Positions 2,264-30,057 of a stretch of DNA of 64,000 nucleotides are shown here, piece by piece; the first letter of the stretch is position 1; every line of letters begins with the position of its first letter. The stretch lies in NCBI GenBank assembly GCA_050874305.1, contig JBNMKL010000006.1, forward strand, positions 1,651-65,650. Direction: 5' to 3'. Source of the DNA: Lachnospira sp. (GTDB lineage: Bacteria > Bacillota > Clostridia > Lachnospirales > Lachnospiraceae). The notes under the pieces were generated by a model. That model had not been told where the DNA came from. It ran no database searches and worked only from the letters and a program-made list of their open reading frames with translations. The position numbers and the translations under genes are program-made.

Positions 2264-3283
2264 ATGCAAAGAAGATTACTAACATTAGCAATGGCAGCAG
2301 TGATAAGTATTACAGCTGCATCAATGTCAGGTTGTGAGAAGGTGAAAGATGATGTAACACAATCTTCAGAGACGACAGCCGATACAGAGGTTACAACTGG
2401 TATAGAGAAAGCAACTAAGGCAGATAGTGGGATTTTAGAGAAGATTGACGGACAATTATTTTATTATTCAAGTGGAGCAGGCGCATGGGCTACGGAGCTT
2501 AAAGTACATGCAGATGGCTCATTTGAAGGACATTATTATGATATGGACATGGGAGATTCAGGAGTTAAGAATCCGAATGGAACGCAGTATGATTGTCAGT
2601 TTAAGGGACAGTTTTCGACACCAGAGAAGATAGACAGTTATTCATATTCAATGAAGGTTGAAAAGATTGAAACTGAAAAGAAAGAGGGTACACAGGAGAT
2701 AAAGAACGGAATAAAGTATGCATACACAGCACCGGCAGGAATATCAGATGGCGCGAAAGTGTATGTATATGTTCAGGGTACACCAGTTAACAGCCTTCCA
2801 GCAGGGTATTTAAGCTGGGCTGATATGTCTTTAAACGGAGCGGATAAACTTCCATTTTATGGAATATACAATGAAAAAGATGATGCTGGATTTGTTGGAA
2901 CATCGAAAGAAAATACACAATCATCACTGGATATAGAAAATGAACTTGCTCAAATTGAGAAGAAGGCAGCGGCAATTAACAATAAATTGCAAAATGAAAT
3001 TCTTACGCAGACAGAGATGAATCAACTGACCGCTGAACTTTATAAACTCTGGGATAATGAGCTTAATAAGGTCTGGTCTTATCTTAAAGATACACTGGAT
3101 AATGCTACAATGAGCACTTTGAAAGAGGATGAACGCAACTGGATTAAGAATAAAGACAGCCAGGTAAAGGAAGCAGGAAAAGAGTTTCAAGGTGGTACAA
3201 TGCAGTCTATGGTGGAAAACAGTAAGGCGGCAGAGCTTACCAGAGAAAGAGTATATGAATTGTCTAAGTATGCTTCACATTAA
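2264..3283 (+). CDS. Lipoprotein with C-terminal LprI/DUF1311-like domain
   Basis: Signal peptide with lipobox (ASMSGC); C-terminal WDNELNKVWSYL...LKEDERNWIKNKD...AAELTRERV pattern. Confidence 0.7.
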   Translation: MQRRLLTLAMAAVISITAASMSGCEKVKDDVTQSSETTADTEVTTGIEKATKADSGILEKIDGQLFYYSSGAGAWATELKVHADGSFEGHYYDMDMGDSGVKNPNGTQYDCQFKGQFSTPEKIDSYSYSMKVEKIETEKKEGTQEIKNGIKYAYTAPAGISDGAKVYVYVQGTPVNSLPAGYLSWADMSLNGADKLPFYGIYNEKDDAGFVGTSKENTQSSLDIENELAQIEKKAAAINNKLQNEILTQTEMNQLTAELYKLWDNELNKVWSYLKDTLDNATMSTLKEDERNWIKNKDSQVKEAGKEFQGGTMQSMVENSKAAELTRERVYELSKYASH

Positions 3284-10189: not shown

Positions 10190-11155
10190 ATGAAGATACT
10201 TATGCTTGATACTGTTACATACGGAGATGACATTTCTCTTGATAAGTTTAACCAGCTTGGTGAGGTTATCACATATAGCAACAGCACGCATGAAGAGGCG
10301 GTAGCCAGAGTTAAGGAGCATAATCCAACGATTGTTGTTACTAACAAGGTGGTTATTGATAAAGACATATTCGAGGCAGGAAGTGAGATTAAAATGGTCG
10401 CTGAGACTGCTACAGGATATAACAATATTGATATAGAATATGCCAAGGCGCATGGCATAAGGGTTGCAAATGTCGCCGGCTATTCGACACAGTCTGTTAT
10501 ACAGCATACATTTTCACTCCTTTTCTATGTATTTGAGAAGATGAATTATTATGACAGATATGTAAAGAGTGGCGAATATGCCAAATCAGCCAGCTTCACA
10601 CATTTTGATAATGTATTCCATGAACTGTATGGCAAGACATATGGAATAGTAGGTCTTGGCAATATCGGACGTGGTGTAGCTAAGATTGCCACTGATTTCG
10701 GATGCAGGGTTATATACTATTCAGCCAGCGGACATAAGCAGTATGTGCCATATGAGTGTGTTGACCTTGATACATTTTTGAAAGAATCGGACATAGTATC
10801 AATCCATGCTCCACTCAATGATAAGACTAAAAATCTGTTTAATTATGACAATCTTAAAAAGATGAAATCATCAGCCGTCCTTCTTAACTTAGGCAGAGGT
10901 CCAATCATCAATGACGCTGACCTCGCCAGAGCCTTAAAAGAGAACATTATCGCTGCCGCTGGTTTAGACGTAATAACCACTGAGCCAATCGCCGCAGATA
11001 ATCCACTTCTCGAAATACAGGACAGCGATAAAATGGTTATAACACCTCACATTGCATGGGCAACCTACGAAGCCAGAACCCGCCTCATGAACCTCGTCTA
11101 CGAGAACATTGAAAGCTTTTTAAATGGCAAGGAAGAAAAGAACGTAGTGGTCTAA
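10190..11155 (+). CDS. D-2-hydroxyacid dehydrogenase (glycerate dehydrogenase/HprA-like)
   Basis: ATGYNNID, GIVGLGNIG, SIHAPL, LNLGRG, LDV..TEP, TPHIAW. Confidence 0.92.
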   Translation: MKILMLDTVTYGDDISLDKFNQLGEVITYSNSTHEEAVARVKEHNPTIVVTNKVVIDKDIFEAGSEIKMVAETATGYNNIDIEYAKAHGIRVANVAGYSTQSVIQHTFSLLFYVFEKMNYYDRYVKSGEYAKSASFTHFDNVFHELYGKTYGIVGLGNIGRGVAKIATDFGCRVIYYSASGHKQYVPYECVDLDTFLKESDIVSIHAPLNDKTKNLFNYDNLKKMKSSAVLLNLGRGPIINDADLARALKENIIAAAGLDVITTEPIAADNPLLEIQDSDKMVITPHIAWATYEARTRLMNLVYENIESFLNGKEEKNVVV

Positions 11156-11423
11156 AATTATAAAACTGTACCGCCACCGGGTGCCCTGCCAGCAGTAATC
11201 TGTCCCACAACCTTCCATGTCGGCGTGTCGTGCAGCTCTTAGGTTAGTGTAAGACATAAAGCTAATCATAATGCTAAACGTTCAAGCGAAGCGCGTTTTT
11301 AGCATTATGATTAAATAAGCTTATGTCGTACTAACCTTAGAGATGCTAGACACAGAGACCCAGGAAGGTTGTGGGACAGATTACTGCTGGCAGGGCACCC
11401 GGTGGCGGTACAGTTTTATAATT
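11156..11423 (+). repeat. Fold-back element A: 268-bp giant hairpin with 61-bp perfect terminal inverted arms
   Basis: 11156-11216 is the exact reverse complement of 11363-11423; nested inner stems (e.g. 16 bp, 11263-11278 / 11298-11313); apex contains GCGAAGC (11286-11292); core homologous to 29784-29928. Confidence 0.9.
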
Positions 11424-11478
11424 GTAGAGGCGTGTGAGATAAGTGTGACAAAATTTATTAAAAAAATTTCAAAACCCA

Positions 11479-24950: not shown

Positions 24951-25029
24951 AGCCAAGAAAGATATAAGAGTGCGTAGACACAAAACGAATCCCCATGAGA
25001 TTGCAGCTCATGGGGATTCTTCTCGTTTT
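24951..25029 (+). ncRNA. Putative type I antitoxin sRNA (~80 nt)
   Basis: No ORF follows the promoter. Carries GAAAGATATAAGA (24957-24969) and CGTAGACAC (24973-24981), complementary to the toxin mRNA on both sides of its start codon. Ends in a 13-bp hairpin (24987-24999 / 25007-25019) plus T-run. Confidence 0.7.
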
Positions 25030-25051
25030 AATCGGTTGAGCATCCGTCAGG

Positions 25052-25147
25052 TTAATTGTCGTTGTTCTTTCTATCTAGCCATTTGCAGATGTAGTAGCCA
25101 ACTACACTTGCCATGATAGAAATAAGGAAAGATATAAGAATATCCAA
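25052..25147 (-). CDS. Type I toxin-antitoxin toxin peptide (Fst/Ldr-like, 31 aa); absent from the ORF track
   Basis: GGAGG RBS 8 nt before TTG; MDILISFLISIMASVVGYYICKWLDRKNNDN: one hydrophobic helix, a conserved-type W and a charged tail. Confidence 0.8.
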   Translation of the reverse strand: MDILISFLISIMASVVGYYICKWLDRKNNDN

Positions 25148-25195
25148 CGTAGACACCTCCCTTCTGTTGCCAGAATGAGTACAACAACAATAGTT

Positions 25196-25204
25196 ATTAT
25201 AACA
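25196..25204 (-). promoter_or_regulatory. Extended -10 promoter for the toxin mRNA
   Basis: TGTTATAAT on the minus strand; -35 is weak. Confidence 0.55.
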
Positions 25205-27012: not shown

Positions 27013-28452
27013 ATGGCAGAGGATAAAAAGTTAGTTGAAGCTATTACATCTATGGATGTAGATTTTGCACAGTGGTATACAGATGTCTGCAAGAAAGCAG
27101 AGCTTATGTCTTACTCAAGTGTTAAGGGATGTATGATATTTAAGCCGGCTGGATATGCAATCTGGGAGAACATACAGAAAGAAATGGATAGAAGGTTCAA
27201 GGAGGTTGGAGTTGAGAATGTATATCTTCCAATGTTTATTCCAGAGAGCCTTCTTGAGAAGGAAAAAGACCATGTAGAAGGATTTGCACCAGAAGTTGCA
27301 TGGGTAACACAGGGGGGACTTAATCCACTTCAGGAGAAAATGTGTGTACGTCCTACATCAGAGACATTATTCTGTGATTTCTACAAGGATGAGATTCAGT
27401 CATACAGAGATTTACCAAAGGTATATAACCAGTGGTGTTCAGTTGTAAGATGGGAGAAGGAGACAAGACCATTCCTTCGTTCAAGAGAGTTCTTATGGCA
27501 GGAAGGACATACAGCACACGCAACAGCAGAAGAGGCAGAGGCTAGAACACAGCAGATGCTTAATGTATATGCTGATTTCTGTGAGGAAGTACTTGCTATG
27601 CCAGTTATCAAGGGACGTAAGACAGACAAGGAAAAGTTCGCCGGAGCAGAGGCAACATACACAATCGAAGCACTCATGCATGATGGCAAGGCACTTCAGT
27701 CTGGTACAAGCCATAATTTTGGCGATGGATTTGCCAAAGCATTTGGAATACAGTATACAGATAAGGATAATAAGTTAAAGTATGTTCACCAGACATCATG
27801 GGGTTCAACAACAAGACTTATCGGTGCTATGATTATGGTTCATGGTGATAACAGCGGACTTGTTCTTCCACCAAGAATTGCACCTGTACAGGTTGATATT
27901 ATTCCAATTATGCAGAAGAAGGAAGGCGTTCTTGAGAAAGCGGCAGAGGTTGCAGCAGCACTCAAGGCAGCAGGACTTCGCGTTAAGGTTGATGACAGCG
28001 ATAAGAATCCAGGTTGGAAGTTCTCAGAGCAGGAGATGCGTGGTATTCCAGTACGTGTAGAGATGGGACCAAGAGATATCGAGGCTGGCAAGGCTATTAT
28101 CGTAAGAAGAGATACAAGAGAAAAGATTGAAGCACAGATAGATGGACTTGCAGACAAGATTAAGGAAGTACTTGATACAATGCAGGTTGAGATGCTTGAG
28201 AGAGCAAGAGCACACAGAGATGCACACACATATGTTGCAACTAACTATGATGAGTTCAAGGATATAGTTGCCAATAAGCCAGGATTTGTTAAGGCTATGT
28301 GGTGTGGCGACCAGGCTTGTGAGGACAAGATTAAGGAAGATACAACAGCTACATCAAGATGTATGCCATTTGCGCAGGAACAGCTCAGTGATGTATGTGT
28401 ATGCTGTGGAAAGCCAGCTAAGAAGATGGTTTACTGGGGTAAGGCGTACTAA
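27013..28452 (+). CDS. proS: Proline--tRNA ligase (archaeal/eukaryal-like type, no editing insertion)
   Basis: [40 protein letters not shown]-terminal YWGKAY. Confidence 0.96.
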
Positions 28453-28478
28453 TTAAAGTTATTTGGTAAGGAGACTAT

Positions 28479-29714
28479 ATGCAGCTTCCAGAGGATGTCA
28501 GAGCGATTATTGGCACAATTGAAGAACATGGATGCGAGGCTTATGCTGTCGGTGGATGTGTAAGAGACACATTGCTTGGAAAGACACCATATGACTGGGA
28601 TATAACCACATCAGCACTTCCTATGCAGGTCAAATCTATGTTTAAGAGAACTGTGGATACAGGGCTTAAACACGGCACAGTGACTGTTATGATAGGAAAG
28701 ACCGGCTATGAGGTCACAACCTACAGGATTGATGGTGAGTACAAAGACGGCAGGCATCCTGAAAATGTAGAATTTGCAGTTAATCTTCTTGAAGACCTTA
28801 AAAGAAGAGATTTCACTATCAATGCAATGGCGTATAGTGATAAAAACGGGCTTGTCGATGAATTTGACGGACAAGGTGACCTTGAACGCGGGATTGTAAG
28901 ATGTGTAGGTAATCCTATAGAGCGTTTTACAGAAGATGCCCTAAGAATGATGAGGGCTATAAGATTCTCGGCACAGCTTTCATTTGAGATAGATAAGGAG
29001 ACATATAAGGCTATTGAAAAGCTGTCTACTAATATCGCACAGGTAAGCATGGAAAGAATCCAGGTGGAGCTTACCAAGACAATTATGTCTGATAATCCGG
29101 AGAAGGTGGAGCTGTATTACGAGACTGGTATATTCTCGGTGGTTTTACCAGATGTTGCAGCTATATTTGAGGGAAGATACAGACAGAATGCCATTAGTAT
29201 GTTAAAACATACAGAAAAGACTGTTATATTAAGATATGCGGCACTTCTTAACTCTCTTGAGCCAGATAAGGCAAAGGGAGTTCTTAGAAGCCTTAAGCTG
29301 GACAACCACACTGTTGACAGTGTGACTGCTATCGTTGCTAATTCCAAGGTTACGATAGATGAGAATGAGCCGGCGATAAGAGAGGCATTAAATCGTTATG
29401 GAAGAGAACTTTTTGACAATCTTATCATACATGATGAGGCTCTTACGACAGCCAAGGAGGAGATTACAGGAATAATCCTTCCGGGAAAGCATAATCATAT
29501 AGCTGCCGTTAAGAAGATGATGGATGATATTATAGCAAGAGGCGATTGTGTGACGATTAAAGACCTTGATATAACCGGGAATGATTTAATTGAATATGGA
29601 ATGACGGGACCGCAGATTGGCAAGACGCTCAATGAATTGCTTCATGTTGTGATGGATAATCCGAAGCTTAATGACAAGGCGACGCTGCTTGCGATGCTGG
29701 AACATTTCAACTAA
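28479..29714 (+). CDS. cca: CCA tRNA nucleotidyltransferase
   Basis: AVGGCVRD, DWDITT, GLKHGT, EDLKRRDFTINAMA, EDALRMMRAIRF, ITGNDL. Confidence 0.93.
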   Translation: MQLPEDVRAIIGTIEEHGCEAYAVGGCVRDTLLGKTPYDWDITTSALPMQVKSMFKRTVDTGLKHGTVTVMIGKTGYEVTTYRIDGEYKDGRHPENVEFAVNLLEDLKRRDFTINAMAYSDKNGLVDEFDGQGDLERGIVRCVGNPIERFTEDALRMMRAIRFSAQLSFEIDKETYKAIEKLSTNIAQVSMERIQVELTKTIMSDNPEKVELYYETGIFSVVLPDVAAIFEGRYRQNAISMLKHTEKTVILRYAALLNSLEPDKAKGVLRSLKLDNHTVDSVTAIVANSKVTIDENEPAIREALNRYGRELFDNLIIHDEALTTAKEEITGIILPGKHNHIAAVKKMMDDIIARGDCVTIKDLDITGNDLIEYGMTGPQIGKTLNELLHVVMDNPKLNDKATLLAMLEHFN

Positions 29715-30002
29715 ACCCTGCCTGCGGCGCAGCCCGTGTGTACCGTATGCCCCTTGCAGGCTGTGTACCTATACCAGAATTGCATGACGACTGTCGTGTG
29801 GCTCTTAGGTCGGTGTTAGACATAAGATAAGTCGGATGCTAAACCGTTCAAGCGAAGCGCGTTTTTAGCAATCCGGCTTTAATATACTTTGTCGTGCCGA
29901 CCTTAGAGCCACTAGACACAAAGGACCAGCAATTCTGGTATAGGTACACAGCCTGCAAGGGGCATACGGTACACACGGGCTGAGCCACACGCAGGTTTAG
30001 TT
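29709..30002 (+). repeat. Fold-back element B: ~294-bp giant hairpin with 54-bp perfect arms plus imperfect extension
   Basis: 29730-29783 is the exact reverse complement of 29929-29982; AACTAAACC (29709-29717) / GGTTTAGTT (29994-30002); core ATGCTAAACCGTTCAAGCGAAGCGCGTTTTTAGCA equals element A except for one C. Confidence 0.9.
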
Positions 30003-30017
30003 AAAGATGTTGGTGGG

Positions 30018-30057
30018 AATGCTCTCAAGTTTTTAAACTTGAGGGCATTATTTTTTT
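30018..30057 (+). terminator. Rho-independent terminator directly after element B
   Basis: AATGCTCTCAAGTTT / AAACTTGAGGGCATT plus T7. Confidence 0.75.

Follow-up and report, generated by a model that had tools for sequence, protein, structure and literature searches.

A palindromic repeat with a conserved centre, copy-specific arms and a mini-hairpin apex in gut, rumen and oral anaerobes

Two groups of bacterial repeats come closest to the element described here. Repetitive extragenic palindromic (REP) sequences and REPINs are short extragenic palindromes, non-coding and present in many copies, which fold into hairpins. Most lie at the 3′ ends of genes, often near stop codons, and they are transcribed, affecting mRNA ends; not autonomous themselves, they are presumed substrates, as single-stranded DNA (ssDNA), of RAYT proteins supplied in trans, which are Y1 HUH transposases. 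Miniature inverted-repeat transposable elements (MITEs) of the RNA-folding kind (Correia/NEMIS, ERIC, RUP and bcr1 of the Bacillus cereus group) are interspersed imperfect palindromes of 100–300 bp, co-transcribed with their neighbours, with some compensatory changes and with presence/absence polymorphism. The same traits, including the presumed action in trans, recur in an element of which two copies, A and B, lie in a 64-kb stretch of a Lachnospira sp. genome (64,000 nt of contig JBNMKL010000006.1, hereafter the window).

The element differs from these systems in what it conserves: its centre is near-invariant, and its arms vary from copy to copy while staying matched within each copy. Our analysis leads us to favour, with some reserve, a non-autonomous palindromic DNA repeat defined by its structure, whose cap and internal loops would be read in trans, whose arms would be homogenised arm to arm, and which would behave like selfish or neutral interspersed DNA.

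Two fold-back copies and a multi-copy family

Both window loci are real hairpins of 280–310 bp and are copies of one repeated DNA element. Copy A (Table 1) has arms of 66 nt that are 98% complementary, 61 nt of them perfectly so, and an inner perfect stem of 16 bp; as RNA (11145–11435) it folds into a single rod at −196 kcal/mol against −79 ± 4.7 for shuffled sequences (z = −25), and its core folded as DNA gives z = −9.2. The arms of copy B, 83 nt long and 88% complementary, pair perfectly over the inner ~54 nt, and the RNA fold is again a single rod (z = −19.5); its extent is slightly wider than the 29709–30002 first assigned to it. The two copies have in common a centre of ~146 nt with the same mismatches and bulges; their cores align, and the 34/35-nt apical stretch is identical but for one extra C. 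The window contains the 25-mer GTTCAAGCGAAGCGCGTTTTTAGCA only in copies A and B, once in each (0 expected), and a subfamily profile search found no third copy in the 64 kb. Inverted repeats, folds and core alignment thus bear out an earlier reading made from the window's letters without database searches (the sequence-only reading), which had described two fold-backs with a shared centre whose apex is identical but for a single C.

A search of the apex across genomes, which that reading had proposed, places the 18-mer TTCAAGCGAAGCGCGTTT in at least 119 genomic loci, where it caps otherwise dissimilar hairpins of Selenomonadaceae, Lachnospiraceae, other Clostridia and Bacteroidales, fold-backs with arms of their own; a few of the loci are chance matches in unrelated phyla. 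The hosts are gut, rumen and mouth bacteria of several groups. Among the matches listed, Selenomonas, Centipeda and Mitsuokella have several copies per genome, and further copies occur in Lachnospira eligens, Bovifimicola, Eubacterium, Evtepia, other Clostridia and metagenome-assembled genomes of Bacteroidales; the carriers include isolates of Selenomonas, Centipeda, Mitsuokella, L. eligens and Bovifimicola. The copies fall into families (Sel1, 51 copies; Lach, 25; Sel2, 19; a Bacteroidales group; the window subfamily; and singletons) that have only the apex and the general rod architecture in common. In the window's species, the apex is about 20 times as deep as its flanks in metagenomes and in an isolate-like run, corresponding to ~20 copies per genome; a metagenome scan with a 24-mer of the window subfamily found only 5 loci. 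The notion of a non-autonomous repeated module agrees with this multi-copy family, for which the window encodes no enzyme.

The repeat appears to be new. At gathering score, Rfam 15 has no family at either window copy or in 18 loci spanning all families, and a search at a permissive E-value returned only plant microRNA long-hairpin models, far below their thresholds. A literature search by sequence and keyword found no description of the element. The 77-bp inverted repeat of P. gingivalis was considered and set aside, being of another layout with a loop of several hundred base pairs.

Table 1. Features of the two fold-back copies in the window (positions are those of the window).
Feature	Position	Strand	Remarks
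Copy A, whole fold-back	11151–11428	+	Apex orientation +; inverted repeat, fold, orthologous alleles
Copy A, left arm	11151–11216	+	11156–11216 pairs perfectly with 11363–11423; outermost pairs take in the dehydrogenase stop codon (11153–11155)
Copy A, core (imperfect palindrome)	11217–11362	+	Internal loops and bulges common to all subfamily copies
Copy A, apex-proximal stem P1	11263–11313	+	11263–11278 with 11298–11313; closes the apical loop
Copy A, invariant apical block CGTTCAAGCGAAGCGCGTTT	11279–11298	+	Mini-hairpin GCGAAGC at 11286–11292
Copy A, right arm	11363–11428	+	Reverse complement of left arm; outer part GGTGGCGGTACAGTTTTATAATT resembles a terminator stem and T tract
Copy B, whole fold-back	29701–30011	+	Apex orientation +; one related strain lacks 29725–30015
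Copy B, left arm	29701–29783	+	29701–29724 is the 3′ end of the CCA-enzyme gene plus 10 nt; stop codon 29712–29714
Copy B, conserved core	29784–29928	+	Core alignment, profile search; flipped in L151, L159–162 and L167
Copy B, invariant apical block	29845–29864	+	Mini-hairpin GCGAAGC at 29852–29858
Copy B, right arm	29929–30011	+	Outer ~29988–30011 is an imperfect inverted copy of the gene 3′ end
Canonical intrinsic terminator after copy B	30018–30057	+	Outside the element; kept in all alleles, with or without the element

Inside-out conservation, flips and the apical mini-hairpin

The inside-out pattern of conservation is general. Within the window subfamily, every copy combines the same core with near-perfect arms of its own (52–66 nt), and the arm ends of these copies have no terminal motif in common. 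In the Lachnospiraceae family, the fold-back continues for 30–90 nt past the end of between-copy homology, and some members are hairpins of 2 × 250–320 nt. Four-way alignments of arms and cores yield 5–22 changes per ~40–60 columns in the arms, mostly mirrored, against 0–3 per ~70 in the core: window copy A and its allele L133A differ by 16 mirrored and 6 one-arm changes in the arms and by 1 + 1 in the core, and L073b and L074b by 10 mirrored and 2 one-arm changes in the arms and 0 + 3 in the core. The near-invariant core and the mirrored substitutions between orthologous alleles support what had been proposed from the window alone, namely that the centre is the conserved part and that the arms are kept matched within each copy. 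The further claim that the arms of different copies share only short words holds in that arms are copy-specific, but those of non-orthologous subfamily copies retain weak collinear homology and are therefore not unrelated; it follows that the arms travel with the element. Ordinary arm-to-arm recombination explains both the matched arms and the flips described below without a special enzyme.

Three allele types occur at locus A: that of the window, that of L139 and L174, and that of L133, L168 and X15. The second has window-like arms with two mirrored substitutions and an inverted core. The third has a window-like core and flanks, with ~40 nt of the mid-arm replaced in both arms; the replaced stretch corresponds to 11179–11207 on the left side of copy A, with its exact reverse complement on the other arm, and no donor for it was found in any sequence compared.

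At locus B, the alleles comprise the full element and several independent partial deletions between direct repeats of 5–8 nt. The core is inverted in several relatives (Table 1), two of which, L151 and L159, were flipped and then lost one arm to a deletion; because that arm is gone, their flip is real and not an ambiguity of assembly. One allele lacks 29725–30015, and its joint (29724 to 30016, the only one available) shares no nucleotides on either side and contains one additional A. Among sister species, L166 has no element at locus B, and L167 has a flipped full copy with different arms and a compensated apex. In L166 (2290–2400), a direct repeat of the final 19 nt of the CCA-enzyme gene (GGAACATTTTACGTGATTA) occurs ~60 nt downstream; it may represent a footprint or a small insertion of unrelated origin.

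The occurrence of both core orientations among strains at both loci, together with the position of both copies upstream of operons of an often phase-variable kind, could suggest an inverton, a phase-variable switch in which a site-specific invertase would turn the core round between its arms and thereby regulate the downstream extracytoplasmic function (ECF) sigma operon (A) or polysaccharide genes (B). Scans detected no sigma-70-like promoter in the core, itself a near-palindrome, the arms vary from copy to copy and so offer no common recombinase site, no invertase gene lies nearby, and most copies sit between convergent genes; we regard an inverton as very improbable.

The pairing that closes the apex is kept while its sequence varies. 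In 49 sequences from six families, the P1 stem (12 bp, closing the apical loop) is paired in 80% of cases against 43% for shuffled and 34–47% for slid partners, with double changes at all 12 pairs. Copies found independently of the search pattern carry the apex variants CCGAAGG, GCGCAGC, GCGGAGC, ACGAAGT and GTAAAAC: the first and the fourth replace a G:C pair by C:G and A:T, respectively, and the second and third change the loop from GAA to GCA and GGA, so that the variants either hold the closing pairs by compensatory change or hold a G-N-A loop. These variants support a mini-hairpin of two closing base pairs and a GAA loop (GC/GAA/GC) over the alternative GCG/AAG/CGC pairing; the latter is preferred by nearest-neighbour DNA folding, which does not model the mini-hairpin, and is contradicted by the natural compensatory variants. 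The DNA mini-hairpin is reported to be kept by GC-GC or CC-GG closing pairs and by GAA, GGA or GCA loops, and the d(GCGAAGC) type melts at 76.5 °C as DNA versus 39 °C as RNA (PMC13037366); the natural variants coincide with those reported there to keep it. The idea of a GCGAAGC mini-hairpin, first raised from the window alone, is strengthened by apex variants that keep the rules of the DNA form.

Such mini-hairpins are found at the G4 primase origin, at RSF1010 ssiA (CCGAAGG, bound by the RepB′ primase) and in N4 hairpin promoters, and CCGAAGG is a natural variant of this apex. The conserved loop motif in a long ssDNA hairpin that marks single-strand initiation (ssi) and single-strand origin (sso) signals is present here, as an invariant apical block with GCGAAGC and covarying pairs. 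The hairpin might thus be an ssDNA signal, that is, an ssi- or sso-like priming or initiation site or a hairpin promoter, spread or used by a mobile primase-helicase, with the chromosomal copies as dispersed sites. Three of the seven Bacteroidales copies adjoin genes of primase-helicase type (VirE/BT4734_N+DUF3987 or VapE-like), a raw count from Bacteroidales only. There are, however, ~20 chromosomal copies per genome in housekeeping contexts, and, unlike ssi and sso signals, which are orientation-dependent, the copies favour neither strand with respect to GC skew; moreover, the apex 20-mer is absent from viral contigs, a phage collection has chance matches only, and a plasmid collection has the apex only on the 626-kb replicon of E. 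eligens. We judge a signal of this kind to be clearly unlikely.

Placement, transcription and surroundings of the copies

Copies lie more often between convergent genes than between divergent ones (29 versus 12), and those in tandem gene contexts are co-oriented with the genes in 14 cases and anti-oriented in 16. No bias relative to GC skew is seen except a mild one in Sel1; random orientation relative to both genes and GC skew fits frequent flipping. Among 59 clear fold-backs, the end of a flanking long open reading frame (ORF) falls 0–19 nt inside the paired base in 19 events, against ~2.5 per 10-nt bin elsewhere. About one-third of copies overlap a stop codon, on either side of the element; lenient scoring over-extends some hairpin bases, and we therefore cite only the clear cases, which are copies A and B, L040, L050, L147b, L148 and L149. 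Where the base holds a gene end, the far arm bears an inverted copy of the gene's last codons. The overlap might have arisen if template switching within the molecule extended the palindrome outwards, or if insertion left an inverted duplicate of the flank.

In the window, copy A starts at the TAA of a 2-hydroxyacid dehydrogenase gene and precedes an ECF sigma/anti-sigma pair, and copy B overlaps the TAA of the gene for the CCA-adding enzyme, with a normal terminator downstream. The remainder comprises housekeeping genes and a polysaccharide-synthesis cluster (32567–60037) encoding a DegT aminotransferase, an initiating sugar transferase, at least 8 glycosyltransferases, a Wzm/Wzt ABC-2 exporter and an MBOAT protein. 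Copy B lies ~2.5 kb upstream of this cluster, after proS and the CCA-enzyme gene and before genes for YutH-like and PEGA-domain proteins. Elsewhere in the window, 24979–25197 on the minus strand matches Rfam SpF66_sRNA (RF02442; 42.6 against a gathering score of 42 bits, E = 1e-6), between a sodium:solute symporter gene and an unassigned ORF, and has a terminator-like 3′ hairpin.

Several features recur around copies in other genomes. Neighbouring pairs in opposite orientation between convergent genes are common (L014:2800–3310, L147:3670–4250, L056, L073/L074/L088 and L007). The 626-kb second replicon of [Eubacterium] eligens ATCC 27750 (L176; NC_012780.1, 315263–320283) has three unannotated copies, one of them between a cardiolipin synthase and a NUDIX gene. 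The Bacteroidales copies at L087:2189–6109, L080:4900–7458 and L020:4097–5200 are flanked on one side by HU-HIG and N-acetylmuramidase/amidase genes and on the opposite side by VirE-like (BT4734_N+DUF3987) or VapE+DUF3874 genes, and six Bacteroidales copies are followed by a common T-rich tail, TTCTTTTTTGGTTCGTTTT, which could begin a tiny ORF on the other strand. Genes for aminoacyl-tRNA synthetases (ValRS, LeuRS, TrpRS, ProRS) or the CCA enzyme adjoin copies in several unrelated genomes (L050, L051, L077, L085, L101, L105, L109 and L149, and 27013–29714 of the window), possibly by chance, as these families are large. An orthologous Lachnospiraceae copy, L011 (1150–1250, compared with L074:3420–3477), has lost ~60 nt exactly around the apex, a deletion of the centre being typical of long palindromes. 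Searches based on the apex therefore undercount the family.

Copies of the element are transcribed: contigs from four rumen metatranscriptomes extend from clpB across a Sel2 hairpin and stop at its foot. At L014, a deacetylase-like gene and clpB are separated by two hairpins, the first of them with the apex variant TCCAAGCGAAGCGCG; in the same four datasets this first hairpin (2800–3111) reaches 2–5 times the contig depth of clpB and the second hairpin, and the 50-nt linker between the two is nearly empty, as if the hairpins survived as processed stable RNAs. A gut metatranscriptome contains the cores of related copies. The element could be a functional structured RNA, at the gene 3′ end or standalone, acting as a terminator, 3′-end stabiliser, RNase III substrate or protein-binding non-coding RNA, with selection for pairing keeping the arms matched. 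The transcripts speak for it, as do the strong stem covariation across families, the siting at gene 3′ ends and over stop codons, and the outer stem of copy A, which is followed by TTTTAT with no other terminator before the ECF sigma gene; in whole hairpins, read on the strand defined by the apex, G·T mispairs also outnumber A·C by 1.8 to 1 (220 versus 122, the copies not being independent). An RNA function fits poorly with orientation that is random relative to flanking genes and flips between strains, with arms in perfect Watson–Crick pairing (few mismatches and no wobble enrichment), and with a stem of 2 bp and a G-N-A triloop that is stable as DNA and not as RNA; the conserved part has no promoter, frequent deletion alleles suggest weak selection and no Rfam family matches. 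We consider this explanation rather unlikely; in our view the DNA form is what is maintained, and the RNA hairpin is a by-product that may have local effects.

The structure is not an assembly artefact, as far as the assembled sequences can tell. Logan short-read contigs regularly break inside the arms, which could hint that the fold-backs are chimeric fold-back joins, an explanation to which we give almost no credence: the same loci with distinct alleles recur in dozens of independent assemblies from differing pipelines and samples, one-arm deletion derivatives keep the junctions, and contigs from several samples cross the entire element. The same architecture and its allelic variants are seen in many independent European Nucleotide Archive, Logan and NCBI assemblies, isolate genomes included. 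Logan contigs of run X1 have zero differences from the window, yet such contigs break inside the palindrome. De Bruijn assemblies systematically break at the element, and Logan contigs encoding the exact window proteins (L120–L132) all stop ~30 nt into the left arm. Since these contigs end in the arm, locus context and alleles were drawn from cluster members and homologues.

A proposed structure-defined repeat and its place among known systems

The window contains no transposase, reverse transcriptase or HUH gene. Clustering of ORFs of at least 150 aa found no recurrent mobile-element gene near 124 loci, where ABC ATPases, helicases, aminoacyl-tRNA synthetases and the like recur; RAYT, the Y1 transposase, is missing from the 64-kb window and does not recur within 4 kb of the 124 loci. 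Interrupted Selenomonas copies (L019, L093, L017 and others) adjoin ordinary genes and not an insertion sequence (IS), and no IS bearing the arms was found near the loci. These surveys gave no support for the link to an HUH (Y1/RAYT-like) or protelomerase-like enzyme suggested by the sequence-only reading, no such gene recurring near the 124 loci. Fold-back synthesis from the apex, one of the mechanisms that it had offered, does not hold as stated: the core keeps conserved asymmetries, and fold-back copying would therefore have to start at the border between core and arm. The spread across phyla, the flip/flop alleles, the series of deletions and the stop-codon overlap all go beyond what that reading anticipated.

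Under the preferred reading of a non-autonomous, structure-defined DNA repeat, the constrained part is the centre, an imperfect rod of ~146 nt with fixed internal loops and a loop of ~21 nt containing the d(GCGAAGC)-type mini-hairpin. This cap may nucleate a hairpin or cruciform and, once the DNA is single-stranded or extruded, may be recognised by a factor whose gene lies elsewhere; natural candidates are enzymes of ssDNA hairpins such as HUH nucleases or the primase-helicases of mobile elements. The arms (50–90 bp here, up to ~250 bp in relatives) would be passengers of free sequence, their complementarity kept by arm-to-arm recombination, gene conversion or hairpin-templated repair, and the same process would invert the core (flip/flop). 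Palindrome-stimulated slippage would delete parts of the element. We further infer that the fold-back may grow outwards by copying its flank in inverted orientation, which would explain why a neighbour's stop codon is so often found in the base. Where transcribed, the element would fold at the 3′ ends of genes into an RNA hairpin of great stability, probably as a side effect, acting as a terminator or 3′-end protector as REP, ERIC and Correia elements do.

Several observations weigh against this reading. Arms diverge 2–7 times faster than flanks and much faster than the core, and at locus A the arm phylogeny disagrees with that of the flanks; simple conversion is no explanation for accelerated arms with discordant genealogies. 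Comparison of orthologous loci with and without the element, another check proposed at the outset, did reveal presence/absence at locus B, but gave no unambiguous empty site or target duplication: the 'empty' locus B allele may itself be a deletion, and no new insertion with a clear empty site was found among the loci compared. As the loci yielded no target-site duplication, conserved end or candidate enzyme, mobility is deduced from copy number, distribution and polymorphism only. Apex invariance arises partly by construction, the loci having been fetched with the apex, and de Bruijn assembly could exaggerate the identity of the arms. The excess of G·T over A·C mispairs and the depth of the first L014 hairpin, both described above, belong on the same side.

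In a bolder version, the element would represent mobile DNA of a new class, delimited by structure, at the foot of the fold-back, and not by terminal sequence. An enzyme common to Bacillota and Bacteroidota would recognise the mini-hairpin cap, and whenever the element moved or was repaired, one arm would be rebuilt as a fold-back copy of the other, begun at the core/arm border. This would explain at once the perfect arms, their mirrored and accelerated divergence, the inverted gene ends and the lack of terminal repeats and target duplications; we offer it as a speculative possibility that is probably not the right one.

If the preferred reading of a structure-defined DNA repeat is true, a widespread unannotated repeat family is added to common gut, rumen and oral anaerobes, one that breaks short-read assemblies, places inversion and deletion polymorphism beside housekeeping genes and puts very stable hairpins on mRNA 3′ ends. 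It would reverse the usual rule of bacterial repeats, conserved ends and a free middle, and provide a natural system for the survival of long palindromes, for arm-to-arm conversion over ~60 bp and for an in vivo reader of the d(GCGAAGC) mini-hairpin, to our knowledge a question standing since the motif was discovered at phage origins.

Comparison with the systems introduced at the start sets these traits in relief. REPINs, ~100 bp long, consist of conserved, enzyme-recognised REP stem units of 20–40 nt with a GTAG or CGTC tag around a variable loop, whereas here (270–650 bp) conservation lies in the loop and centre, and variation in the stem ends, which have no motif; no RAYT gene was found nearby, and the hosts are anaerobes of Bacillota and Bacteroidota. 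MITEs have conserved terminal inverted repeats that match a parent IS and direct target-site duplications, neither of which was found at the loci compared, where the arm ends have no common motif, the arms differ between copies and alleles, and the apex is common across phyla. The ssi signals and hairpin promoters (the G4 origin, RSF1010 ssiA and ssiB, the N4 early promoters, ssoA and Frpo) likewise have a folded ssDNA hairpin with a GCGAAGC or CCGAAGG loop; they are single, orientation-dependent phage or plasmid sites read by proteins, whereas the present element is a dispersed chromosomal repeat without strand bias. As in the palindromes of primate Y chromosomes and the inverted repeats of chloroplasts, arms are near-identical within a copy and diverge between copies, and as in the terminal flip/flop hairpins of parvoviruses and poxviruses, an asymmetric centre occurs in both orientations. 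These are analogies of process, since scale, organism and mode of replication differ, and the loci gave no evidence of terminal resolution or hairpin telomeres. The closest systems in kind are therefore REP/REPIN and the RNA-folding MITEs, although their defining marks (conserved ends or tags, target-site duplications and an associated transposase) were not found here. What sets the element apart among bacterial interspersed palindromic repeats is its inverted conservation, the concerted and accelerated evolution of its arms, the flip/flop of its core and a DNA mini-hairpin cap common across phyla.

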